DNA from: an uncultured cyanobacterium
GTDB taxonomy: Bacteria; Cyanobacteriota; Cyanobacteriia; Cyanobacteriales; Cyanobacteriaceae
DNA: 64,000 nucleotides
Assembly: GCA_963710605.1 (NCBI GenBank)
Contig: CAVQBA010000006.1
Location: forward strand, 128,001 to 192,000
Reading direction: 5' to 3'
This document shows, piece by piece, positions 727 to 60,300 of this stretch. The position numbers and the translations under genes were made by a program. Position 1 is the stretch's first letter. Each line of letters begins with the position of its first letter. The notes beneath the pieces are model-generated. The model saw nothing but the letters and a program-made list of their open reading frames with translations, ran no database searches and was not told the DNA's origin.

Positions 727-1794
727 ATGGTGTTTACTGCTAAGTATCAAAAATATAGTTTAAAATTTAAACGTCCTAGTGGTACTTCTCGTGGCATAAT
801 GACCACTAAAGATACTTATTTTGTTTTCCTTAAAGATAGTAATAATCCTAACAAAATTGCGATCGGTGAATGTGGTTTATTAAAAGGATTAAGTCACGAC
901 GATCGACCTAACTATGAAACTAAACTACAACAAGTTTGTCAGCAAATCAAACAGATTAGATCACTAGAAGGAATCAATCGTTTGTGTTTGAGTTTGTTAG
1001 ATTACCCTTCGATTCGTTTTGGAGTAGAAATGGCGTTTCAAGATTTAGTAATGGGTAGCCAACGTATTTTTTACGATAATTATTTTACTCAAGGAAAACC
1101 AATCCCGATTAATGGTTTAATTTGGATGGGTGAAATTGAGTTTATGCGTCAGCAAATTATCAAGAAAATAGAAAGTGGTTTTAGTTGTTTAAAATTAAAA
1201 ATAGGGGCGATCGATTGGGAAACGGAGTTACAATTAATAGCAAGTATTCGTCAAGAATTTTCAGCCAATGACATTGAAATTAGAGTTGATGCTAATGGTG
1301 CTTTTTCTCCCTCCACTGCTTTAGAAAAGTTAGAGCTTTTAGCAAAGTACAATTTACATTCGATCGAACAACCGATTAAACAAAATCAATGGCAAGAGAT
1401 GGCTTTATTGTGCGATCGAACTCCTTTACCAATAGCCTTAGATGAAGAACTAATTGGCATCAACAATCCAGAAGAAAAAGATAAATTAGTAAACTTTATT
1501 TCACCGCAATACCTAATTTTTAAACCTAGTTTAATTGGTGGTTTTAAAGCTACTCAAGAATGGATAGATATAGCAAATGAAAAACAAATCCCTTGGTGGA
1601 TAACCTCAGCATTAGAAAGTAATATTGGATTAAATGCGATCGCTCAATTTACAGCTAATACCAACAATAAAATGCCACAAGGATTGGGTACGGGGCAGTT
1701 ATACACAAATAATATCGACTCTCCTTTAGAAGTAAAAGCAGGACATCTTTACTATCGCCCAAACCTAAAATGGAATTTATCTTCTTTACACTAG
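727..1794 (+). CDS. menC: o-succinylbenzoate synthase (enolase superfamily)
   Basis: KLKIG, RVDANG, IEQP, IALDEE, KPSLIGG, TSALES motifs. Confidence 0.85.
   Translation: MVFTAKYQKYSLKFKRPSGTSRGIMTTKDTYFVFLKDSNNPNKIAIGECGLLKGLSHDDRPNYETKLQQVCQQIKQIRSLEGINRLCLSLLDYPSIRFGVEMAFQDLVMGSQRIFYDNYFTQGKPIPINGLIWMGEIEFMRQQIIKKIESGFSCLKLKIGAIDWETELQLIASIRQEFSANDIEIRVDANGAFSPSTALEKLELLAKYNLHSIEQPIKQNQWQEMALLCDRTPLPIALDEELIGINNPEEKDKLVNFISPQYLIFKPSLIGGFKATQEWIDIANEKQIPWWITSALESNIGLNAIAQFTANTNNKMPQGLGTGQLYTNNIDSPLEVKAGHLYYRPNLKWNLSSLH
1215..1780 (+). repeat. Direct repeat copy 1 (menC 3' half)
   Basis: Nearly identical to 6213-6780, with scattered substitutions and a divergent last ~25 nt. Confidence 0.95.
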
Positions 1795-2097
1795 TGATGA
1801 TTAAGATTGATATAGATTAGTGATACATACCTAATTAATGTGACACATTTTTAAACAGAAATAGTTTATTTTCTGTCTGAATTTTGGGCATTCTAATAAC
1901 ATATCTCATTCTAGATAAATAGAAATATCAGATCGAGATAAAAAGCGATCTATGAAATCAGAAATTAACATGGTGTTAAAGAAAATATCACTAGTTAGTT
2001 ATCAAATGTAAGGAAACAACAAGTTATTTTGATGGTTTTATTTTTCTGGCAATGATTAGTATATGGATTACTAAAATTTTATAACTAGGATAAGTTC

Positions 2098-5000
2098 ATG
2101 ATAGAAAATACCAATAACAATGAGATTATTATCGAAATTTCAAAAAATCTTAAGAAAAAACAAATTGAGCTGATTAAAATAATGTCAGAAGATAAAATCA
2201 AAATAGATTCAAGTATTTCGATTTTATCTGAGTCTCCAAAAGAATTGATTAAAAATTCAACAAAAAATGTAAAAACTAGAATTATTAATTTACTTTACAA
2301 ACTGGAAAAACAAGAAATAGTCAAATCAGAAAATAATATATTTAGCTTAACTGAGTTAGGTCAAAATATTGCTGAATATTTAGAGAAAAATCAAATTCTG
2401 AATAAAGAAAAAAGAAGCTCTTCCCGTCAACTTCAAAAACAAGAAGTTCAAAAAAAAAGGAATGAATTTCTTGAACTATATAAACAAGGCTTGAGTTATC
2501 AAGATATAGGTAATAAACATCAAATTTCTAGAGAAAGAGTTAGACAAATCTTAATAGACAATCCTACTTTTCATGAATATAGAGAAGAACAAGAATTAGC
2601 TAAAATTCAAGCCCAAGAAGAAAAAGAAAAACAAGCTGAAGAAAATTTTTACGAACGAAGTATTGCTTTTCTTTATCCAGAAAAAGTCGATCTGCTCTGG
2701 GATTATGAAAAAAATGGAAATCTTCAACCTGATGAAGTTATCGCAGGAAGTGTAAGTCAATACATATGGCTCAAATGTCCTCTCGATCGATATTCTTGGA
2801 AAAAAAAACCTAACGATATTACAACTAGTTGGTCAAGATATGGAACAAGTGGTTGTCCCAAATGTGCTGGTAAAACAAAAAAAATACAACAAAGACCAAA
2901 ATTAAAAGATGCTTATCCTGATTTTGTCCAGCAATATTGGGATTATGAAAAGAATGATGAATTAAATATTTATCCAGAAAAAGTTAAAACTGGTAGTAAC
3001 AAAAAAGCATGGTTTAAATGTTCTGTTGATGGCAATGAATGGGAAAGGATAATTCATTCAATGGTGGCTCAAAATTGGTCAAAAGGTAATGGTGGTTGTA
3101 GTGTTTGTAATGGTACTCAGGATAGAAAAAAAAGTAAGTGGACAAGAGCTAATCCTGTGGCAGTAGATTTTTCTGAAGAAGTGGCTAAATATTGGCTTTA
3201 TGAAAAAAATAATGAATTAAAGCTCAATCCTAATAAATTAACAACTGGTTCTAAGAAAAAAGCATGGTTCAAGTGTCCTCTCGATCAACATGAATGGGAG
3301 GCATCTATTACAGCTATTGCTAAAACTTCTTGGAAAAAAGGTAATAGTGGTTGTCCTGCTTGTAGAGGATGGATTGCGGCTGAAACTACTTCCTTAATTG
3401 CTCTTTATCCCGAATACATACAACAATATTGGGATTATGAAAAAAATGATTGATTAGGTTTGTATCCAGATCGATTAACAAAAGGTACTAATAAAGAAGC
3501 ATGGTTTAAATGTTCTATAGATGATTACGAATGGAAAGCTCGAATTTATTCAATTATTAAAGGTTCATGGAGTGTCGGAAATAGTGGTTGTGTTAGATGT
3601 AGCAATCGTTGGACAATTGAAGCAATCCGTCAATTTGTAGCTAGTTTAAAAGAACATATTCCTAACTTAACACCAGCAGAACGTTATAGAATATTTGAAC
3701 AATCAGGTATTTTAAATACTCAAAATAAAGAAGGTCTTACAATTGTAAAAGATATTATTAAAGGTAAATTATCGGGAGCTAAATTAGGCGGATTTCTCAG
3801 AGGGGAAGAAACAAAAGAAGATAACTTAGAAAATAGTTTTGATAATAATCTAAATGCTGATGAAGAATTACAAACCGTTGATGATGATCCTTCTCATCTT
3901 TCCAAACATACTTTTCATAAAGATACTGAAAATGCGGAAGAAGAAACTATAGAAAATGAAGATTTACCAAAAATTCATGTACAAAAAAGCCTAGAATTTC
4001 TTAATAGTAAAGTAGTTGCATCTTCAGATCGAGAAGCAGTTGATTTCTTTATTGCTTCCCGAAAAAATCGCATTTGGGCAGAAGTTTTTGAAGATGAGTC
4101 CGCAGTCGAAGGTTTAGAAGAATTTACCGATGAAGGTTATGGCTATCAAGTAAGAGATCAATTTCTTGATGAATATTATCAAGCAAAAAATATGCAAACT
4201 CCTCAAGGTTGGGGTTTTAAAATCAATGGGAAAATAACACCTCCTAACTTAATGCAGAAAGTCTCTGCGGTGCGATTAAATAATGCCAAAAGAATGCTCA
4301 ATTTATCTTTAACTGGAACAGGTAAAACCATTGGTGGAATTTTAAGTAGTCGTATTATTGATGCTAATTTAACTATTATTATTTGTCCTTTTGATACTGT
4401 TAGTAATTGGCATAGTGAAATCAAAAAAGTTTTCCCCGATAGTAAAGTTACAACTAAAAATTTTAGTCCTTATTGGGAAACTATAAAAAATGGACATCAT
4501 TATATGATTTTTAACCATGAAATGTTCCAACAACCCAATACAGCAAGTCGTATTCGTCAACTATTAGAAAAATATCAAATTGATTTAATCATTGTTGATG
4601 AAATTCACAAATGTAAACAAAGAAGTCAAAATCCTTCTAAACGCCGTCAAATGATTATGGGATTAATCACCAATGCCAATGAAATTAATCCTAATCTTCA
4701 TGTTTTAGGGATGAGTGCCACACCAATTATTAATAATCTCAAAGAAGGCAAAAGTTTAGTTGAATTAGTCTCAGGAATAGAAAGAAGTGATTTAGGAGAA
4801 AAAGCCACAACTAATAATTGTATGAAGTTACATCAGGCTTTTGTAACTTTAGGCATTCGCTCAAGGGTAAAACCTAAAATTAAAATTGATAGAATCCAAA
4901 TTCCTATTGATATTTCACATTTAGTTGATGAAATTAGAGAGGAAGGAAAATCTGTTCTCAAAATGGAGCAAATTTTAACCCGTGCTAAAATACCGACTAT

Positions 5001-7993: not shown

Positions 7994-9526
7994 TTATTCC
8001 GCAAAAGTTTCTACATTACCACTAGGAGAAAGAATCAATCTGATAGTAAGAGGAGACACTTGTGTAAAACCTGAAGTAATTATCTCACCAATCAACGGCA
8101 TTGGTGTTTGATCAATAAATATCGAGGCAATTTGTCCGACAGGTGTTATTCTACTTAAACTACCATCACCGTTTAATACAAGGCGATATTCGATGCTTTG
8201 TGTGAGATTCTCAGGCGGTTGCCATTTGCTTTGAAAATAGGTTTCAACTTCAGTAGAAACATTATTACTAATCTGCTTGGCTATCACTATCGGGCTGTTA
8301 TCTGTGCTTAATTGTTGTCTTAGTTTTACACTCGGCTTGATTTGTTGATTATTTGTGGTTGGTAAATTAGGTAAGTTATTACTAGAATCAAGGCTTGGTT
8401 TTGGATTTGCCGCTGATAAAACAGGTACGGTAGAAGGAGGATTAGTTTTAGTATTAAGTGGTTTTGATGGTGGTTGTTTATTCTCAATAACTTGATCTTG
8501 TTTGATTGTTGGAGGAGAATTAAAAGACGGTTTTATTGCCATAATCACCGATGGGTTAACTTTTTTATCGGTTGAATTTGACGGCAAATTGAATACTTTT
8601 TGTGAAGGAAAAGGTTTTGTTTTTGAGGATGAAGAAGTTGTTTTTGAGGATGGTGTGGGTAAAACACTAGTAATGCTCAAGTTATTTTGCTTTGATGAAT
8701 TGTTATCTTCATTAGGAATAACTAAATCAATTGACGATGGTGTAATATTTGGTGGTGGTAATAATGATTGTTGACGAATTGCTTGTGGCGAAATTTTAGC
8801 TAGATTTGTCTGAGCGGGTATTTTAGGTACAATTGTTTGAGGTATATTTTTAGCATCTAATGGTTGAGGTGGCACAACTGCTTGAACATTCGTGTCATAT
8901 TTGTCAGCAGGTAAATTTTCATCATCAGTTTCTTGGGCTATATCGCTAGCTAAATTTTGCTGATAACGCCACCATCCTAGCCCTCCTGCGGTTGTAATTA
9001 TCGCTATTAGAGCAATCCAAGCACTAGCCGATAACGATCGTTTTTTCTTTTTGATATTTACATTAGTCGCATCCCAATGATAAGTATCTAAAGCATTGAC
9101 AAAATCGACTAGTTGTGTATTATTTAAAACGACTTCGATCGTTTCTGGATGAGGTTCAAAAGATTGATAATAGAGAAGATGGCTATAAGCACTCAATCGG
9201 CTTAAATGAACAATTTTACCTTCTGCTGATAATGGTATTTCGCAAGCGAGTTTTTCTGGTTGCTCCCAAATAGATGTACAGTTAAGATATTCTTGTACAT
9301 ATTTAGTTAATGTTTTTCTAAGTGTTTCAAGCAAATCTCGATCGCCAATTACGGTAATTTTATCTTCTTGTGTTAACCGAGGATCATCAAAATGTAACTG
9401 GAAACTAAATAAAGGAGGAAAATGTTGCGATCGCCATCTACCCCAAAACGGTTGTGGATGATATATTTCTAATGTACAAGTAGGAGGGGTATAACGCCTA
9501 AAAGAATTAAATTTGTGAATTACCAT
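7994..9526 (-). CDS. DUF4335-family cyanobacterial membrane protein
   Basis: RRYTPPTCTLEI N-terminus, FDDPR, one TM segment, Pro/Ser-rich linker, WQPPENL..SIEYRL C-domain. Confidence 0.75.
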   Translation of the reverse strand: MVIHKFNSFRRYTPPTCTLEIYHPQPFWGRWRSQHFPPLFSFQLHFDDPRLTQEDKITVIGDRDLLETLRKTLTKYVQEYLNCTSIWEQPEKLACEIPLSAEGKIVHLSRLSAYSHLLYYQSFEPHPETIEVVLNNTQLVDFVNALDTYHWDATNVNIKKKKRSLSASAWIALIAIITTAGGLGWWRYQQNLASDIAQETDDENLPADKYDTNVQAVVPPQPLDAKNIPQTIVPKIPAQTNLAKISPQAIRQQSLLPPPNITPSSIDLVIPNEDNNSSKQNNLSITSVLPTPSSKTTSSSSKTKPFPSQKVFNLPSNSTDKKVNPSVIMAIKPSFNSPPTIKQDQVIENKQPPSKPLNTKTNPPSTVPVLSAANPKPSLDSSNNLPNLPTTNNQQIKPSVKLRQQLSTDNSPIVIAKQISNNVSTEVETYFQSKWQPPENLTQSIEYRLVLNGDGSLSRITPVGQIASIFIDQTPMPLIGEIITSGFTQVSPLTIRLILSPSGNVETFAE

Positions 9527-50976: not shown

Positions 50977-51161
50977 TTTCTTTTCTACTAAATATGATAA
51001 TTTGTGCAAAAATACCGAAGTGATATTGGTAGTATAGCTAATCACTGACAGTTAATAGTATAGATTATCAATTATCGTGACTGTGGACATTCTCTGTGCC
51101 TCTGTCGCATTACTAGCGGGCTTCTGTCCGCAATTATCAATTATCAATTATTAATTATTGT

Positions 51162-52136
51162 ATGCCTATTTATTTGTATTGGGGTGATGACAATTTTGTT
51201 ATTAATCAACAAGTCAGTAACCTAAAAAAAGAAAACTTAGATAGTAACTGGCTACAATTCAATTTCCAAAAATTTTCTGGAGATAAAGCTGAGTATATTG
51301 AAGAGGCTTTAATCGAAGTAATGACTGCTCCTTTTGGTAGTGGCAATCGATTAGTATTAATAGAAAATACAACCATATTTACTCAATGTAGTGAAGACTT
51401 GTTGATACAGTTACAAAAAACTTTACCACAAATTCCTGCGACAACTCATTTATTGTTTATTAGTAATAAAAAACCGAATAATAGATTAAAAAGTAGTAAA
51501 TTATTAACTAGTCAACAAGCCGAAATAAAAGAGTTTAGTTTAACCCCTCCTTGGCAAACTGATATTTTAGTGAAAAAAGTAGCTAATTCATGTCAAGAAA
51601 AAGGAATTAAAATTAACACTGAAGCGATCGAAGTCTTAGCTAATTGTGTCGGAAACGATAGTCTTTTATTATGGCAAGAAATAGAAAAATTAGCAATTTA
51701 TCAAGGAGAAAAAAGTCAACCTTTAGATAGCGAAATAATTAAAGAATTAGTTAATTCTAGTAACCAAAATAGTTTGCAATTAGCTAAAGAAATTTTAAAT
51801 AATAATGTTGCTAATGCTTTACAAATAGCTACAGATTTAATTAATATGAATGAGCCTGCATTGAGGATAGTTGCAACCTTAGTCGGGCAATTTAGAACAT
51901 GGACAATCGTTAAAAATATGATCGAAATAGGAGAAAAAGACGAGCAAAAAATAGCTAAAATAGCTGATATTTATAATCCTAAAAGAATTTATTTTCTCAA
52001 AAAAGAAGTCAATCGCAAAACAGTAAAGCAATTAAATAAAAGCTTACCAATCTTGCTAGAATTAGAATCTAGTTTAAAATTAGGAGCTGAACCTTTAACT
52101 ACTTTAAAAACTAAAATAATCGAATTGTGTCAGTAA
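51162..52136 (+). CDS. holA: DNA polymerase III delta subunit
   Basis: MPIYLYWGDD, TAPFG...RLV, PPWQ, E.EKL, EPALRIVATL. Confidence 0.9.
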   Translation: MPIYLYWGDDNFVINQQVSNLKKENLDSNWLQFNFQKFSGDKAEYIEEALIEVMTAPFGSGNRLVLIENTTIFTQCSEDLLIQLQKTLPQIPATTHLLFISNKKPNNRLKSSKLLTSQQAEIKEFSLTPPWQTDILVKKVANSCQEKGIKINTEAIEVLANCVGNDSLLLWQEIEKLAIYQGEKSQPLDSEIIKELVNSSNQNSLQLAKEILNNNVANALQIATDLINMNEPALRIVATLVGQFRTWTIVKNMIEIGEKDEQKIAKIADIYNPKRIYFLKKEVNRKTVKQLNKSLPILLELESSLKLGAEPLTTLKTKIIELCQ

Positions 52137-52364: not shown

Positions 52365-53441
52365 TTACTCATTCTTCATGGGTTTTTCCGAGGCAAAATA
52401 ATTTAATTGAGTAGGATAAGCAAACTCTATATTATGCTGAGTAAACGCATTTTTAATCGCTAAATTAACTTTATGTTTAGCTTGACGATATTTTTTTAAC
52501 TCATTACTATGTACATAAAAAATAACTTCAAAATCCAGACTAAAATCACCGTAACTAGAAAAATAAGCAATATCAAGAGTTATAATATTTATGTCTTTTA
52601 AAGCATACTTAATAATCTCAGGAATTTCTTCTAACAACTCATGTGGAGTTTGATAAATAACTCCGATTGTTAAAATTACCTGCCTTCTTTGCATACGCTT
52701 AAAATTACGTAATCTAGAGTTAGTTAAATCCGTATTTGCTAGAATAATTTGCTCTCCTGTTAAGGCTTTTATCCTTGTAGTTTTAATCCCAATATGTTCT
52801 ACATAACCGACAAAATCATCAACCGAAACTAAATCATATATTTCAAAAGGACAATCGAATAAAATAGCAAAATAACTAAACAAGTCTTGTAGAATACCTT
52901 GAGAAGCTAAAGCAATTGCCACACCACCAATACCTAAACCTGCTACTATCGCCCCGACATCCAAACCTAAATTACTTAATATAAATATAGTAGCTAAAGT
53001 CCAAATCATAACTCTTAAAGCAGGGAATAGAGCATTGATTTTACTTTCAATATTTTGATCAGATAACTGATATTTTGTGCTATAAAAAGAAATACTAATC
53101 CGAGAAATATCAACCAATAATTGAGCCACATAAAAAGTAGTCGCCAAAATCAAAATCGTTTTAGTCGTTGTTAAAACTGTCGGGTGTAAATTGATTTCTT
53201 TGACTGTCAGATAAAATAAACCAAAGTAACTAATCGGCAAAAAATATTGATTTAAAAGCTCAATAAAAGTAGTTGTAAGAATATGCTCATTGTGATCACT
53301 AATTTTTCTTAGCTGGCGAAAGATAAATTTTTTGATGAAGTCAAGAAAAAAATAACCGAAAACCAAAATAAATGAAGAGATAATTATATCTTTAACAAGG
53401 CTAGGTAAATTGGTAATTAAATCAATGACAGGTTGCCACAT
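52365..53441 (-). CDS. MscS-family mechanosensitive channel
   Basis: GLGIGGVAIALA.Q..L.D.F, IGIKTTR, NFKRM, IEFAYPT. Confidence 0.92.
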   Translation of the reverse strand: MWQPVIDLITNLPSLVKDIIISSFILVFGYFFLDFIKKFIFRQLRKISDHNEHILTTTFIELLNQYFLPISYFGLFYLTVKEINLHPTVLTTTKTILILATTFYVAQLLVDISRISISFYSTKYQLSDQNIESKINALFPALRVMIWTLATIFILSNLGLDVGAIVAGLGIGGVAIALASQGILQDLFSYFAILFDCPFEIYDLVSVDDFVGYVEHIGIKTTRIKALTGEQIILANTDLTNSRLRNFKRMQRRQVILTIGVIYQTPHELLEEIPEIIKYALKDINIITLDIAYFSSYGDFSLDFEVIFYVHSNELKKYRQAKHKVNLAIKNAFTQHNIEFAYPTQLNYFASEKPMKNE

Positions 53442-53718
53442 AAGTATAAATGCAAGATTGATAAGACGTTTTGAATAATGAGAGTGCTTTGTTTATGTTT
53501 TACTCTTAATATTCCTTCACCTAGTTTAGAGTAATTACTCTTGTTTTATCGCCAATAAAAAAACTCATTCGATCGTATAATGACTTTGATAATGATTGTT
53601 CTCAGTATAGTCTTTGTGTGACTACAAAACTTAGTTTGATAAAAATATTGTCTAATTCTCAATTATCTCAATTATTAGAGTAAAGTAATGACTAACTTTG
53701 GATATCATTTGGTAATTT

Positions 53719-56172
53719 TTACTGAATTGAATATAATTTATTCTTTATGTTTAATATTTCCAATATTGTGTCATCGATGATTATTTCTTCAATAACAGGG
53801 GCGGAGTTATTAACTAAAACGGTGACGGTAGCTTGATTAGAAAGATTACCATCGTTATCTTCTACAGTATAGGTAAATCGATCGAGTCCTACAAACTCGC
53901 TATTAGGTTGATAGTCAACTATGCCTTGTGAATTAACTGTGATAACGCCGTTACTAGGTTGGCTCGTTATTTGTAAGCTATTAGGTATTAATGTACCATC
54001 ACGATCGCTATCATTGGCTAAGACATCGATGGCGATATTTTCTCCTTGGTTTATGGAGATTAAATCGTTGAGGGCTAATGGGGCAGTAACGGACTGATTG
54101 TCGATTTTTACGTTATCGAGATAAATTGTCGAATCTGCGTCACCAAAGCCTAATAAATCAAAATAGAGAGTAACTTCAGTACCCGATGGTATGTCAGAAA
54201 TATCAACAGTAACAGTTTCATTAATTGTCAATTGTCCATTGTCCATTGTCAATTGCTCACCGCTGGATGTGCCACCAATTCTAACTCGATCGTCGAAGTA
54301 GGCTGTGCCGTCGTTTTGCAGGTTGAAGAAGCTATCGGTATTTGATAAAGTATTACCGAGAATTGGTTGGTTGGTGTTGGCATCAAGAAGAGCTACTTCA
54401 AAGGCATCTGGTGGTAGAATCGTGTTGTTGGTATCGCCATTACCTAGTTGGGCGTTAAAGCTAAATTGTAAGGTTTGACTATTTTCAGGGACGATAAAGC
54501 TTTGGGTGAAGTTACTTAAATAGGAAGAGTCTTCGGTGAGAATTGCTCGATCGTTTTTGACGGTAGCGGCACCTCGGTTATTCCAGCCATAATCAGGGTT
54601 TGTATTGTTACTAATAGCAAAGTCACCGTTAAGGATTTCTGCCATCAATCCACTAGAGGTTAGTGGTGCGGTGAGGGAGATTCCCACCTCTTCTTCGGAA
54701 GGAGAAAGGCTATTGCTGAGGTTGAAATCTAGAGAAGAATCCCCCCTAGCCCCCCTTTGTAAGGGGGGAACAAGATCGTGGTCGTGGTTGTCCGTTTGAG
54801 GTATTAGGGTATGATAAGTGTCGGTTTTTGTATTTTGAATTGCGTTGAGTATTAAGACGTTGATATCAGAAGGAAGTTTACGGATACTAGGGGCGAGATG
54901 GGTATTTAATAAGTCATGGGGGTGAGCTCGTTTGTCTAAATGTGAACCATCTACTGAGAGCAAGGCAGTAAAGTTATCGCCGATAAAGGTACGTTTACCA
55001 TTTTTATAACGAACATTTTTATCAAATTCTGAATAACCACCCATGAAGCCATAAAGGTGTGCGGCTTCGTGGAGGATAGTGGTAAGGAGATCGTATTTAC
55101 CATATGCTGGGGAGTCGGGAGTGGCTTGAAATGCCCAATCTGTATTATTGATACTGTATTCTTCGTTGGCGAAGGGTGTTTGGTCGATAAACCAGCCGGC
55201 ACCGTTAGCATCATGATCGATTTTAATAATACCAGCGTTAGGTTTACCTTGAGAGTCGAAACCTGTTATGGTAGCTTCTGCTAGTTGTCCAGAAGGTAAG
55301 TCTTTTATTTCATAAGTGATGTCTATATCTGTTTGGGGTATAAGGGTTGACCAGATGTGGTTTACGCTATTATTTAGTTGGTTAAGCGTTTGGAGATTTG
55401 AATTATGGATATTACTGCCGAAGAATTGGTCAGAAGATATGAGGCTGGGGAACGTGATTTTCGAGGTATTATTTTGCAGTACACCAGTTTGAATGGAGTT
55501 CAATTTGAAGAGGTTGATTTCCGAGGAGCGATTTTTAATAATATCTCGTTTGGCACCATTAAATTCGTTCCAACTAAGTTTATTAATTGTAATCTCTCCT
55601 GTACTGAGTGGTGGTTTTGTGGTTTGCCCCCACTGTTTGGATGTAATTTGCAATACTCTATCATAGAATCTTGTTATTTTGGAGATACTTTTGTTGATTG
55701 CGATTGGAGAAATAGTCAAATTAGTTGTCCCACCTTTGATGACGTTATTTTCGATAGGTGTAACTTGACTGGGCAAAGAGAAGCCAAAGGAACTGGTCAT
55801 TTTCTTTCTGGTGAAGTGATTGGACTCCAAAACTTTGGAATTGGTCTTAAAAACACTTTCGATAGAAATGGTGTTTTTCACTCTGGTATCTTTTGTCGAT
55901 GGCCTCGTAGAAGTCTTCTGCAATATCCGATTAGATAATAAATTAGCAGAATTATTAGAAGGTGAAGGTATTGTTATGATATTTAAATTTGTGAGATTAA
56001 ATATTTGATTAAAGTCAAAACGAGGTAAGTTGATTTGATTGTTTGGACTATTTAGAATATTTTGTAATTCTGATAATCCTATCAACCATACATGAGGATC
56101 TCTCCATTCGCTGAAGTTATCAATAGCGATAGAGCTCGCTTGTAGGGTGCGTTCTCTTAAACCGTTACATAT
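53719..56172 (-). pseudogene. 5'-truncated fragment of a giant extracellular protein: unknown tail, low-complexity linker, HExxH zinc-peptidase-like domain, beta-sandwich, Ig/cadherin-like domain
   Basis: Frame is open from 56172 with no proper start; DLPSGQLAEA, DANGAGWFID.TP, LLTTILHEAAH, IDVLANDSD..G...FTYTV.D; ends abruptly after one Ig domain. Confidence 0.7.
55405..55938 (+). CDS. Pentapeptide-repeat-family protein nested antisense inside the giant-protein frame
   Basis: N-terminal MDITAEELVRRYEAGERDFRG motif typical of cyanobacterial pentapeptide proteins; 5-residue periodic F/L pattern; GGAG at 55392-55395; no TTA/CTA/TCA codons. Confidence 0.8.
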   Translation: MDITAEELVRRYEAGERDFRGIILQYTSLNGVQFEEVDFRGAIFNNISFGTIKFVPTKFINCNLSCTEWWFCGLPPLFGCNLQYSIIESCYFGDTFVDCDWRNSQISCPTFDDVIFDRCNLTGQREAKGTGHFLSGEVIGLQNFGIGLKNTFDRNGVFHSGIFCRWPRRSLLQYPIR

Positions 56173-56204
56173 TTAAGACGATCCCATATAGCAAAGAACG
56201 CACC
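56142..56204. repeat. REP-like element GTAGGGTGCGTTCT...AGAACGCACC at the truncation point
   Basis: 10-bp inverted repeat at 56146-56155 / 56195-56204. Confidence 0.7.
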
Positions 56205-56211
56205 ACCCTTG

Positions 56212-56452
56212 TTTATTCACTAAAACGGTGACAGTAGCTTGATTAAAAAGATTACCATCGTTATCTTCGCTATGTATAGGTAAATCGATCGATTCCTACA
56301 AACTGATTATTAGGTTGATACTCAACTATGCCTTGTGAATTAACTGTGATAACGGCGTTATTAGGTTGACTAGTTATTTGCAAGCTATTAGGTATTAATG
56401 TACTATCACGATCGCTATCGTTAGCTAAGACATCGATGGCGATATTTTCTCC
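56212..56452 (-). pseudogene. Degenerate duplicate of the Ig/cadherin-like domain at ~53810-54047
   Basis: High DNA similarity to the other copy; stop plus 1-nt insertion at YT*-EDNDGNL. Confidence 0.85.
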
Positions 56453-56481
56453 TCGATCGATCGTCGTCATTTGTAAATCCC

Positions 56482-57816
56482 TTAAACACCATAAGGAAGC
56501 CCCTCACTATTAGATAAAGGAGGAGTCACACCATCTGGCACACCTAACTCATAGGTACGTCCTACTACATTAGTTTCAACTAATTGTAAACCTGCGGCAA
56601 CATCAATTAAAGGCTCAATATCATCGATCGGTTTACTTTTGAGATCGCTAGGATTATCATTTACAGTCTTAATAATCTGTTGAATATCAAAGATAAAAGT
56701 ACTAGCCGCAAAAGGATAAGTAGCATAGAGATAGCGATCGTTTCCAGAGACAGTTAAGCTAGTAGCGATCGCCCCTGGTACCGGTCTGGTGGCGGCAACT
56801 AGTTCAGGATTACTACCTAATGGATTTTTGATAATACCAATATTACTACCAGCAAACTCATCACTGATACTTGGAATGGTACTACCTAAATTGCGACCAT
56901 TACGCCCAACCACAAACCCATATTCAGTTCCAGTTATCTCATCATAAACAATCGTGACATCAACAGCCTCATTAACATCAAAGTAATCGTTAGTGCTACC
57001 AAGATTTAAGCCAGCATAATTAACCTTCATGGTAAAAGCATTAGAATCGTTGTTGGTAATAGTTAAAACACCATAACCTTGAGATTCATTTGCTCTGTTT
57101 GTAAATGCCATTTTCGAGTCACTAGGAGTATCAGAAATAGCTTTGACACCACTACCAACCTTGATAATACCGATTTGTTCGTGCCAACGGAAAAGATTAT
57201 TGAAACTGCTTATCGGTTGCTCATCGGGATTAATATTGATTGCCACAATATAACCATCACCCAAACTCCGATAACTACCTAAAGTAACAAAAAGACGATC
57301 GCCTTGATTGTTAATAGCAATATCTTGAATGTTGACATCATCAGTAGGAACATTCAGATTAATATTAGCAATATGTTGATTGTAAGTATCCGAATTAGCA
57401 TCAATATCAACTACATAGATCAGATTTTGATCACGATCGCTAATATAAGCATATCGATCGTTTTTACTAATGGTAATCGATCGAGGTACAGAACCCGCAG
57501 GTAAAGGAATCGGGTCAATTTGACTAGTATTAAGATTACCATCTAACTGCTTGAATGCCAGTAAATCAACCACCGCTACACTAGAAGAAGTTTCTAAAGG
57601 TACGTATAAACGAGAAGCCTTATTTGTAGGGGCAGAGAAGCGAGGAGTATCTTGAACAGCAGATGTACCTACGCCAATACTAGCTAAGAGAAGATTACCC
57701 ACACCATCAGTTTCAATAACTGTCTTTGGATTACTTGAGTTAATAATATTAACACGATCGGCAAAAGGTATAGTTGCGATCGCAAAATCAAATCCTAATT
57801 CTTCAAGGAAAGTTAG
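56482..57816 (-). pseudogene. Internal fragment of a giant protein, YncE/YVTN-like beta-propeller region
   Basis: Frame is open from 57816 without an ATG start; RLYV, RYAYISD, RLFVT, RYLYAT blades. Confidence 0.6.
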
Positions 57817-58120: not shown

Positions 58121-59557
58121 CTAAGATTTACTCTCGGATTTTGCACTAATATCTAACAGTACTTCAGGCATCACATTCGGTGTCATCATTGCCCCTGGTG
58201 TATTCTGCTCATATATTTCACCCATAGGTAAAGTCTCTTGTCTAACTTGTTCTTGTGGGTCACCTTCAGGTAATAATTTAAGTAGTGGTAAAGGAAGTAA
58301 AGTTGATAAATTCGTAATCAAAAGTAATAACCACATATGCTCAAAATTGGTTTCGGTTACACCCAGCCATTTAGTCAGTAATGCACCTAATTCGTGAGAT
58401 AACAAACCACCCAAATTCCAAATTGACATTAATAAAGCAAAAAAACTAGCTTCAATACCTTCTGGGCATAAACGGGCGGATAAAACCAAAACGGGCATAA
58501 AAGCAATTTGCCCCATGACAGTTAAAACTAGACTATCACCTAAACTAAACCAGTGGTCATCGATACCAATGGCACGATTAGCATGAGTAACTAACAATAA
58601 ACTAGTCATACCCAATACTGAAGAAAGTACCACACACCAACCCAGAATAGTCCGAAAAGAAATTTGTTTTAACCACTGTTGGTAAGACCAAATACCAATT
58701 AGAGACGCTAAGCTGGTAATAAGACGTACTCTACCTAAAAATTCAGGGGTAAAACCTAATTCATTAGTAGAAAAGAAGAAAAAAGCAGAATCGGCACTAG
58801 GTGTACTTTGCCAGAGAAAAACAAACATCACAGGAGCAAAAATAGATGGTTGTCTAAGGGTTTGCCATAATTGCTTAACTTGTTCAGGAAAAGGTTTTAT
58901 TTTGGTTTCTTTGGTGACAGGTTGCTCAATTATTAATCCTGCTACAGTAATTACTAAAATAGGAAAACTAGCAACGATGAGAAATACTTGATTATTACTA
59001 AAATGTTCTAATAATAAACCACTAAAGTAGGCGGTAATTAAACCACCTAAAGCTGAGGTTGCCCATGTGACAGACTGTAATGAGCCAGATTTGGCTAATG
59101 ATTCTGATTTTGCTCTTTCTACTACTACAGAATCAACAATTACATCGCTCATCGCTACTGATAAAGATGTACCGAGGATTGCGATAACTGCACTCCACAA
59201 ACTATCAACAAATAGGGCTAAACTCAACCAAGAAATTGAGCCGAGAATACCTGCAAGGATAAGATAACTACGACGACGATAATTAAATAATGGTTTACCA
59301 TCGCTTAAAAAACCAATCACGGGTTTGGTTATCCAAGGAATAGAGGCGACTCCCATCAAGGCGGCTACTTGAGCAGGAGAAAGCATTAAATCATCTTTGA
59401 GGAAGAAACTAACGGCGAGTCTAGCTAATCCTAAAATACCTTGAACAAAATATACGGTTAAGATGGCAAATAATTCTGCTGTAAGCTTGTTACCAAATAA
59501 TAGTTTCTCTTCTATATATTGGATAACTTGATTTTTAAAATCTGTATTGACAAACAT
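58121..59557 (-). CDS. Folate/biopterin (BT1/FBT) MFS transporter
   Basis: VYFVQG.LGLARLA.SFFLKD, PW..KP..G..SD, LCPEGIEA. Confidence 0.9.
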   Translation of the reverse strand: MFVNTDFKNQVIQYIEEKLLFGNKLTAELFAILTVYFVQGILGLARLAVSFFLKDDLMLSPAQVAALMGVASIPWITKPVIGFLSDGKPLFNYRRRSYLILAGILGSISWLSLALFVDSLWSAVIAILGTSLSVAMSDVIVDSVVVERAKSESLAKSGSLQSVTWATSALGGLITAYFSGLLLEHFSNNQVFLIVASFPILVITVAGLIIEQPVTKETKIKPFPEQVKQLWQTLRQPSIFAPVMFVFLWQSTPSADSAFFFFSTNELGFTPEFLGRVRLITSLASLIGIWSYQQWLKQISFRTILGWCVVLSSVLGMTSLLLVTHANRAIGIDDHWFSLGDSLVLTVMGQIAFMPVLVLSARLCPEGIEASFFALLMSIWNLGGLLSHELGALLTKWLGVTETNFEHMWLLLLITNLSTLLPLPLLKLLPEGDPQEQVRQETLPMGEIYEQNTPGAMMTPNVMPEVLLDISAKSESKS

Positions 59558-59859
59558 TAAGTATTTTGATGTTAGTTTACTTAATATATCTTAATACATT
59601 AGTCTCGATCGACAAGTAAGATCACAAACAGATAACTGTATTTAAACTAAATAATAGGTCGCACAGTTAATACTTTTTAGTTTTGTTCAAATCAATATTG
59701 CTTGAATTAATATTTTCTGAGGTTACATTCGATAAATTGACATCAGTAAAAGACTTGAATATTACAAATAAATAGAGCTAAAAAATTTTCATTTAGTCAA
59801 TACGTTAATTCTTAATTACTATATAATGCTGTTGAATATGATCAAGATAATTAAAAATA

Positions 59860-60300
59860 ATGACCTTAAGTGAACAAATCAAAAACAAAGAAGTGAGTTC
59901 AAATATCGCCGTAGATTGTGTTGCATTGATGGAAGAGCAAGTTAGTGCTAAAAAAGGGATTAAAGGAGTAACATTTAAGACACTTTATAAAGGAATTAAA
60001 ACCATAAGTCCAGACTACACCACCAATGCAATAAAAGGGCTTTTACCTTCTATTTCTCAAGCGATCGATCCTCTTTGGAGTGAAGGAATCGAGCAAGGTA
60101 ATCCTGTTGATTATTTATCAAAGAATCAATCTTTAACTGCGGATACAATTTTAACAGTAACAGACAATAGAATCAAGAATTCTAGTAATAAAATTGTCAA
60201 GGCTAGTTATAATAAGGTGCGTAATTCTTTAAAAAGTGAAATTGAAGAAGTAGTACCACAATTAGCAGTTATCCTCGATCGAAATATTGCTTCTACATAA
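59860..60300 (+). CDS. Hypothetical protein (DUF6918-like)
   Basis: EQV.AKKG.KG...K..Y, L.VTD.RI, Y.K.R. Confidence 0.55.
   Translation: MTLSEQIKNKEVSSNIAVDCVALMEEQVSAKKGIKGVTFKTLYKGIKTISPDYTTNAIKGLLPSISQAIDPLWSEGIEQGNPVDYLSKNQSLTADTILTVTDNRIKNSSNKIVKASYNKVRNSLKSEIEEVVPQLAVILDRNIAST

Follow-up and report, generated by a model that had tools for sequence, protein, structure and literature searches.

Long antisense overlaps in which both strands specify a functional protein are disputed in bacteria, and the known candidates are young, lineage-restricted open reading frames (ORFs) lying in old genes. The available part of one report describes two long embedded antisense overlapping genes of Pseudomonas aeruginosa (PMC8850804). 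In this study, we analysed a 64,000-nt stretch of DNA (hereafter the window; positions 128,001 to 192,000 of contig CAVQBA010000006.1, assembly GCA_963710605.1) from an uncultured cyanobacterium of the Cyanobacteriaceae. Here, what looks like a real gene for a pentapeptide-repeat protein (PRP), from an old family with solved structures, lies antisense and codon-aligned within a longer open frame of the minus strand (the host frame).

The locus resembles the embedded antisense genes treated in the available parts of PMC8850804 and of a review (PMC7457138) in that an ORF of about 530 nt lies fully inside another frame and comparative signs of selection are seen. It differs in the age of the partners: in those cases an evolutionarily young ORF sits in an old gene, whereas the nested gene of the present locus comes from an old family of known fold and is the one whose amino acids are constrained, the host frame being the passenger, and the arrangement has been kept across many genera. 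Both frames are open far beyond chance and conserved in relatives, as in an antisense overlapping pair.

A second parallel is the NucA/NuiA pair of Anabaena-type cyanobacteria. Relatives of the host protein contain an Endonuclease_NS domain with the same catalytic histidine column, and the small gene directly follows the nuclease-coding part on the other strand. However, the small gene here encodes a PRP and not NuiA (PF07924), the nuclease is one domain of a giant protein whose frame reads through the whole small gene, and inhibition is a proposal. Polymorphic toxins (CDI, Rhs), as far as the available part of Zhang et al. 2012 (PMC3482391) describes them, are likewise giant surface proteins with RHS and Ig-like repeats and with nuclease and peptidase domains. 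They have a tightly linked, diversifying small gene and orphan arrays with truncated pieces of the big gene; orphan cassettes of this kind, a small gene with a piece of the large one, occur here as 22 junction copies in the window's own genome. In these toxins as described there, the toxic part is a variable C-terminal tip and the immunity gene follows it in the same orientation; here, the nuclease is internal and conserved, belonging to one family at 13 of 14 loci, and the small gene is antisense within the ORF. The word "pentapeptide" has 0 occurrences in the available part of that paper. The module thus resembles a nuclease/inhibitor or toxin/immunity pair and falls outside both classes by inhibitor family, strand and position. 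In the literature searched, supplements (e.g., PMC8557916 Table S6 on opposite-strand genes of Nostoc 7120) aside, we found neither a PRP gene antisense within another gene nor a paper on a PRP as a nuclease inhibitor.

Results

Two codon-aligned frames are open in the window

The plus-strand ORF (product P0001; Table 1) runs from an ATG at 55405 to a TAA at 55936-55938 (177 codons plus stop) and is preceded by a GGAG, all as given in a preliminary description of this DNA. GGAG or GAGG stands at this upstream position in only 6 of 16 paralogous copies, by our own reading of the alignment. The host frame has 78 open codons ahead of the overlap, 178 within it and 561 beyond it, which agrees with the earlier figures (78, 178 and about 560). 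The word "giant" used for it then does not hold for the window, where the frame has 817 codons, but does for relatives. The codon-aligned plus frame contains 45 stops across the minus-strand ORF and none between 55399 and 55936. The earliest ATG, GTG or TTG of the host frame is a TTG at 56085, which gives 788 amino acids. The host frame is present in the protein collection as a 788-aa protein (P0003), and a metagenome protein (P0004) is 78% identical to it with the same layout.

The arrangement recurs across cyanobacteria

Immediately after the overlap, the host frame encodes a metzincin-like HExxH domain. This domain has 86 database relatives in many cyanobacteria, and their predicted N-termini are five-residue xSQIGx repeats, that is, the antisense reading of the A(N/D)LxG repeats of PRPs. 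In a same-order sample it was found in 17 of 201 genomes and 11 of 97 genera, often in frames of 3,811 to 10,641 codons; in a phylum sample, 10 of 301 genomes contained it, all 10 from the same order.

The codon-aligned antisense frame just upstream of the HExxH domain was translated locus by locus. A whole PRP-like antisense ORF was present in 21 of 23 distinct loci outside the window's own genome, from M..EELLRRYAAGERDF to ..TIMPDGS.. over about 120-216 codons, with abundant stops in the frame beyond the ORF; two of the 21 (L043, L055) showed no ATG at the usual place. Ten further loci added five with the nest, three without and two lacking context. In total, 26 of 31 homologous loci with usable context carry the nest, at the same place just upstream of the domain. 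The comparison proposed in the preliminary description, namely homologues of the DLPSGQLAEA..HEAAH region read on the opposite strand just upstream, was thus positive for recurring antisense ORFs. The five nest-less loci (L039, L040, L067, L069 and L070) have the most divergent HExxH domain relatives. Our own ORF scan of one complete genome revealed host ORFs of 9,337 and 3,811 codons with a nested PRP ORF in each, and two culture strains, Stanieria cyanosphaera PCC 7437 (plasmid NC_019765.1, CDS STA7437_RS23205) and Gloeothece verrucosa PCC 7822 (plasmid NC_014534.1, CDS CYAN7822_RS30540), have the same nest inside giant coding sequences (CDSs), the only ones that their gene tables give there (the PLSDB table is incomplete).

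Several loci have further peculiarities. Tandem PRP ORFs occur at L073 (G339:C27), L068, L050/L054, L100 and L103; at L073, a single antisense ORF combines two PRPs and the host frame is open for 342 codons. In G140:C3:800001-870000 (L058-L061), duplicated IS-like ORFs flank the two giant host genes (3,811 and 9,337 codons), between which lie open frames of 813 and 884 codons, and the region looks rearranged by insertion elements. The divergent HExxH relative at L040 (G191:C49) lies in a 13,403-codon frame after YD/RHS-like repeats (read by eye), with neither a nuclease nor a nested PRP.

TTA, CTA and TCA are absent from the nested gene

In this register, minus-strand stops would arise only from plus-strand TTA, CTA or TCA codons. 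None of these occurs among the 13 leucine codons (TTG 6, CTT 3, CTC 2, CTG 2) and 10 serine codons (AGT 4, TCT 4, TCG 1, TCC 1) of the PRP gene. Among 1,261 long ORFs from the window's own genome (33% G+C), TTA makes up 58.5% and CTA 9.1% of leucine codons (together 67.6%) and TCA 18.3% of serine codons. The chance of such an ORF is therefore about 5.8e-8, so that the same observation in the preliminary description, valued there at 1e-4, gains in strength. On the minus strand, the 12 leucine and 25 serine codons of the overlap include a single TTA, which is the stop codon of the plus ORF, and no CTA or TCA. Upstream of the overlap, TTA or CTA is used in 8 of 10 leucine and TCA in 2 of 8 serine codons; downstream, the counts are 26 of 57 and 8 of 46.

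A general avoidance of these codons by PRP genes, considered earlier as a point that would count against selection on both strands, was ruled out. Thirty-two other PRP genes of the same genome, several with the usual end motifs (N-terminal xxLxxxYxxGxRxF helix, C-terminal MPDG), use TTA or CTA in 715 of 1,111 leucine and TCA in 80 of 551 serine codons and mostly have 12-72 antisense stops each. The 18 PRP genes linked to the junction described below use TTA or CTA in 6 of 319 leucine and TCA in 0 of 231 serine codons, with 0-1 antisense stops each. The avoidance is therefore a property of the nested subfamily. Pooled over 22 rows from relatives, the host frame inside the overlap has TTA or CTA in 0 of 126 leucine and TCA in 0 of 561 serine codons, as against 431 of 1,176 and 145 of 871 outside it (the pool counts one place twice, as L050 and L054, contains one own-genome row and leaves out L033 and L038).

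Amino-acid constraint falls on the PRP frame

In all 40 closest PRP pairs listed, differences were most frequent at PRP codon position 3, which is host position 1. In the closest pair, the differences at PRP positions 1/2/3 were 0.084/0.090/0.228 and identity was 82% for the PRP and 71% for the host frame; for the window versus L042, whose PRP is the closest relative of P0001, they were 0.363/0.268/0.565, with 49% and 35% identity. The dN/dS-like ratios, of Nei-Gojobori type, ranged from 0.20 to 0.35 for the PRP frame (four of five pairs, dS being saturated for the window versus L042) and from 0.5 to 1.4 for the host frame (all five pairs). A profile of the junction found matches in 22 of 201 genomes, 12 of them without a HExxH domain match (genome lists compared by eye). 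Such orphans mostly have an unbroken PRP ORF, with 0 to 16 stops in the host frame. The substitution patterns together with the orphans indicate that the PRP is selected as a protein, and that the host frame is mainly kept free of stops, and only within a working host gene. Selection on both strands, as first suggested, thus leaves its signature on both, but it appears to hold the host frame open and not to act on its amino acids; the further suggestion that the two genes cannot be separated fails, as orphan PRPs with a decayed minus frame exist.

Own-genome matches had suggested the opposite, namely that the minus frame is the better conserved one (E 4e-48 with the minus-strand protein versus 4.5e-10 with the PRP). 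This was rejected: the junction block and low-complexity composition account for the scores, and codon positions and dN/dS favour the PRP.

Just outside the overlap, the junction has the character of normal host coding sequence. A 160-nt block comprising the 105 nt 5′ of the ATG and the first PRP codons occurs at 22 places in the window's own genome with 73-89% DNA identity; the PRP gene starts at the same ATG in nearly all copies, and the antisense is open over all or most of it. Identity at minus-frame codon positions 1/2/3 is 0.85/0.91/0.67, so the junction is conserved as coding sequence. A candidate promoter for the PRP gene, TTGACC (55347-55352) and TATTAT (55368-55373) 15 nt apart, is absent from the list of a promoter and terminator scan of 55000-56400, which gave 5 promoter-like sites where 4.8 were expected and no terminators.

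Many family copies in the same genome (e.g., G000:C6:258396-259800, C6:565700-566700 and C2:30008) are cut by a repeat that translates as ..GFAFILCIECILIFSRLNPTY.. or ..VGFRFYFMYRI.. and resembles a small mobile repeat.

The encoded proteins

P0001 matches Pfam PF00805 with 35.1 bits (cut-off 20.2) over residues 18-48, which places it in the PRP family, and is just under the cut-offs for PF13599 (36.4 of 38) and PF13576 (26.2 of 27). It missed all curated NCBIfam PRP equivalogs by far: the HetL model (NF047416) gave 34.2 bits against a cut-off of 260 in an alignment limited to the N-terminal 65 residues, and the QnrB and MfpA models (NF000420, NF000349) gave 12.7 of 460 and 15.8 of 360 bits. 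An AlphaFold2 (AF2) model built with ten relatives has a pLDDT of 74.9 overall and >85 at residues 1-110, residues 129-177 being modelled without confidence, and shows short strands every five to ten residues. Foldseek returned 37 matches at E≤1e-3, including HetL (3du1), Rfr (2g0y), Np275/276, Qnr, MfpA and AlbG, with E-values of 6e-5 to 1e-3 against solved PRPs. The predicted fold is a right-handed quadrilateral beta-helix, shared with Qnr, MfpA, AlbG, McbG and HetL, and the nested family is, like these, acidic overall (27 family PRPs: median net charge −10, median pI 4.5).

The ten relatives share 45-59% identity with P0001 and have invariant cysteines and tryptophan in common. This subfamily (alignment A2) has invariant C62, C66, W70, C72, C90 and C99 and a conserved ..NTFDxxGVFHSGI.. 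tail, an uncommon pattern among PRPs that may point to metal binding or disulfides. It sets P0001 apart from the DNA-mimic PRPs, as does the proposed target, a nuclease and not gyrase.

The antisense of the PRP gene is read in the host protein as a linker rich in Ser, Thr, Asn, Ile and Lys, the composition noted earlier; in relatives it consists of five-residue xSQIGx-type repeats. In the HExxH domain that follows, H112, E113 and H116 are invariant in 15 sequences (alignment A1, with the window copy as the first row). No Pfam family matched this domain, and a PDB sequence search with its profile gave nothing better than E 0.2. Its AF2 model (pLDDT >80 over residues ~11-190) matched leishmanolysin best in Foldseek (1lml, E 4.4e-4), followed by matrix metalloproteinases, karilysin and snapalysin (E 0.02-1, target-normalised TM ~0.5). 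A beta-rich, less confidently modelled part separates it from a C-terminal Big_9 domain. Complex prediction for the metzincin-like domain (residues 1-200) with the PRP gave a score of 0.01, which speaks neither for nor against a pairing.

A nuclease domain precedes the nest in full-length relatives

The preliminary description placed a variable domain before the nest. Full-length relatives have instead a conserved Endonuclease_NS domain (PF01223), directly before the nest in 13 of the 14 nest loci with enough upstream host frame; a further locus, L048, has a C-terminal piece of it. The catalytic histidine column is kept in 12 of 12 nuclease segments, and none of four HExxH relatives without a nest had PF01223 in the 350-540 upstream codons searched. 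In the 9,337-codon protein, CARDB, He_PIG, Big_9 and RHS parts precede Endonuclease_NS (~8,347-8,615), the nest (~8,645-8,795) and the HExxH domain, after which come cadherin-like and PKD domains.

The nuclease domain is missing from the window, where a search for nuclease remnants returned only noise; a nuclease beside the small gene is thus a feature of the relatives. The linker that follows the nuclease in L042 aligns to window positions 56124-55837 (35% identity, E 3e-9), and the host frame begins there. Upstream lies a separate, broken gene, so the window host frame is not the tail of a giant gene. Given this and the lack of nuclease remnants, the window copy is by its sequence a short form like L031, L053 and L066, with the PRP, metzincin and Big_9 parts intact and the nuclease part lost. 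The final 48 bases of a conserved block at 56086-56260 recur at the 3′ end of the host ORF in the window (53807-53854), a repeat that suggests former tandem genes with like ends. The only PF01223 gene of the window's own genome, away from the window, is a stand-alone nucA-like gene followed by a convergent nuiA with a 4-nt tail-to-tail overlap (Table 1). An Rfam search of 53500-57000 gave 0 matches at E≤0.1.

Table 1. Positions of the features discussed (window coordinates unless a locus is given)
Feature	Position	Strand	Remarks
PRP gene, P0001, nested antisense	55405..55938	+	177 aa; ORF with Pfam, AF2 and Foldseek support
GGAG	55392..55395	+	9 nt 5′ of the PRP ATG; read from sequence
Host open frame, P0002	53719..56172	-	817 codons stop-to-stop; 788 aa from TTG 56085
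Linker, P0002 residues 50-227	55405..55938	-	Antisense of PRP gene; S/T/N/I/K-rich, no stop
Junction block	55300..55404		Minus frame coding (..NSNLQTLNQLNNSVNHIWSTLIPQTD..); must also hold the PRP 5′ region
Metzincin-like HExxH domain	54835..55404	-	HEAAH at 55057-55071
Big_9/cadherin-like Ig domain, host C-terminus, residues 668-756	53818..54084	-	Pfam PF17963, E 1.1e-18
Conserved block upstream of host frame	56086..56260		7 genome matches, all at family loci
Big_9 fragment, end of separate broken upstream gene	56270..56503	-	
Lactonase-like propeller, part of broken upstream gene	56482-57816		
BT1-family transporter gene	58121-59590	-	Ordinary neighbour gene
DUF6918 gene	59851-60300	+	Ordinary neighbour gene
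MscS-type channel gene	52365-53492	-	Ordinary neighbour gene
DNA polymerase III delta subunit gene	51117-52136	+	Ordinary neighbour gene
nucA-like gene	L114 (G000:C5:274686-278291), ORF 1390-2151	+	253 aa, lipoprotein-like signal; Endonuclease_NS
nuiA inhibitor gene	L114, ORF 2148-2504	-	118 aa; PF07924, E 4.6e-29

Discussion

We propose that the overlap would encode a PRP under purifying selection on the plus strand, while on the minus strand an exoprotein gene would read through the PRP antisense and use it as a Ser/Thr/Gln/Ile-rich linker just ahead of the metzincin-like domain. The absence of TTA, CTA and TCA from the PRP gene would be what allows the host frame to read through its antisense. 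That selection maintains both frames in full-length genes and that the PRP is functional we consider very likely. In the full-length relatives, which would be giant surface or secreted proteins, the order is Endonuclease_NS, linker, metzincin-like domain and Ig-like domains, and the PRP gene lies directly after the nuclease part on the opposite strand, in the same position and orientation as nuiA after nucA. The PRP may therefore be produced by the cell that makes the exoprotein and serve there to inhibit the non-specific nuclease domain, and the arrangement may have arisen from a convergent gene pair that was fused once the host frame extended across the PRP gene. PRPs are acidic and DNA-like in shape, a shape established for Qnr and MfpA, and orphan arrays are typical of immunity genes. 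An inhibitor role is suggested by the domain order, the association of the nest with the nuclease, the nucA/nuiA parallel, the DNA-like shape of PRPs and the orphan arrays; it is a tentative proposal, plausible but short of probable. The toxin/immunity module of the preliminary description would thereby be narrowed to a nuclease with its inhibitor and is still plausible. Convergent transcription and an RNA duplex between the two messages may also couple their expression. Dual-strand coding, nuclease inhibition and fusion of a convergent pair, taken together as one explanation, seem to us on balance the probable account.

Several findings weigh against this account. The window host frame has no ATG ahead of the overlap, only the TTG at 56085, and its translation start is thus uncertain. 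The alignments for the selection analysis were built in the PRP frame, which brings some bias towards it. Twelve of the 18 own-genome family PRPs are still free of antisense stops though most have no host gene, which needs a recent origin or another constraint; recent origin, gene conversion or cassette use are possible. P0001 itself is only mildly acidic (net charge −3, pI 5.4). The window, its paralogues, L031, L053 and L066 keep the PRP and metzincin domain without the nuclease, so that what always stands beside the PRP is the metzincin junction and not the nuclease. No correlation was seen among the distances of the three parts, PRP, nuclease and metzincin domain (r 0.10 with p 0.26, 0.006 and 0.005), in a Mantel comparison of 12 loci with crude local-alignment identities that does not discriminate.

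For the window itself, both frames may be relics: a truncated remnant of a nuclease-bearing gene in which the open minus frame reflects recent descent and only the PRP, or neither gene, is still used. The missing nuclease part, the broken upstream gene and the want of an ATG in the host frame fit this, as do the many family fragments in the genome, a good number of them cut by the repeat, and the stepwise decay of the host frame in orphans elsewhere. However, 817 stop-free codons would not last long in a genome with 58.5% TTA, the window copy keeps all invariant columns of the domain alignment, and P0004 has the same layout at 78% identity. We hold relic status to be somewhat unlikely.

It is also conceivable that the overlap is a frozen accident, in which a PRP with a cellular role of its own was overrun by a neighbouring exoprotein gene without functional coupling. 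The PRP antisense would easily be kept open as a harmless Ser/Thr-rich linker, and a promoter within the host coding sequence would account for the linkage. Such an origin is consistent with the lack of amino-acid constraint on the host frame in the overlap, the survival of orphan PRPs in genomes without a HExxH domain match and the uncorrelated module distances. Yet the arrangement is kept at 26 of 31 loci in many genera and always at the same junction, although some lineages would be expected to have moved the PRP gene out; moreover, the nest goes with the nuclease domain (13 of 14 versus 0 of 4). We therefore regard an accident as unlikely.

The metzincin-like domain might instead be the partner of the PRP, which would keep the protease from acting, or assist in its folding or export, up to its secretion. 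Protein inhibitors are known for secreted metalloproteases. The PRP start is always a few codons from the N-terminal boundary of the domain, the short forms and the window keep PRP and domain without the nuclease, and domain relatives without the junction motif are also without the nest. This adjacency, however, would be forced if the PRP promoter lies in the domain's coding sequence; mean identity is ~56% for the well-conserved domain as against ~40% for the PRPs; and PRPs are, to our knowledge, not known as protease inhibitors. The proposal is thus improbable.

Less probable still is a dual coding by necessity, in which the PRP would be an immunity protein and the linker read from its antisense a docking or release site next to the cutting metzincin domain. 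Inhibitor and docking segment would vary together because they share the same DNA. The orphan PRP and junction copies would then be swap-in cassettes and also stored immunities against the variants of neighbours, an idea to which we give equally little weight. Finally, it is hardly credible that the plus ORF is no gene but, through the symmetry of the code, a mirror image of five-residue repeats needed by the host protein: A(N/D)LxG repeats read in antisense also give a five-residue repeat (xSQIG), which makes both strands look repetitive, and the minus-strand protein scored higher than the PRP as an own-genome query, but the third-position excess and low dN/dS in the PRP frame, the kept non-repeat caps (N-terminal EELLRRYxAGERDF helix, C-terminal TIMPDGS), intact PRP ORFs where the host frame is broken (L044, L101, L103-L105), the predicted fold of solved PRPs and the absence of TCA from all 561 host-frame serine codons of the overlap speak against it.

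Whichever partner the PRP may have, the locus is unusually clear as a candidate for protein coding on both strands of bacterial DNA. The host frame pays for the nest by giving up three codons, and the nest is kept in ORFs of up to ~10,600 codons. It offers a natural system for studying two frames that share one sequence, with orphans and the unrelated PRP genes of the same genome as built-in controls. Current annotation passes over it: the nested PRP is unlisted in the gene tables of the two culture strains, and for the window the protein collection gave the 788-aa host protein, P0001 itself not being among the PRP matches. If the proposed inhibitor role is true, the nest would represent a new means of coupling a nuclease weapon to its immunity gene, and pentapeptide-repeat proteins would gain a new function.

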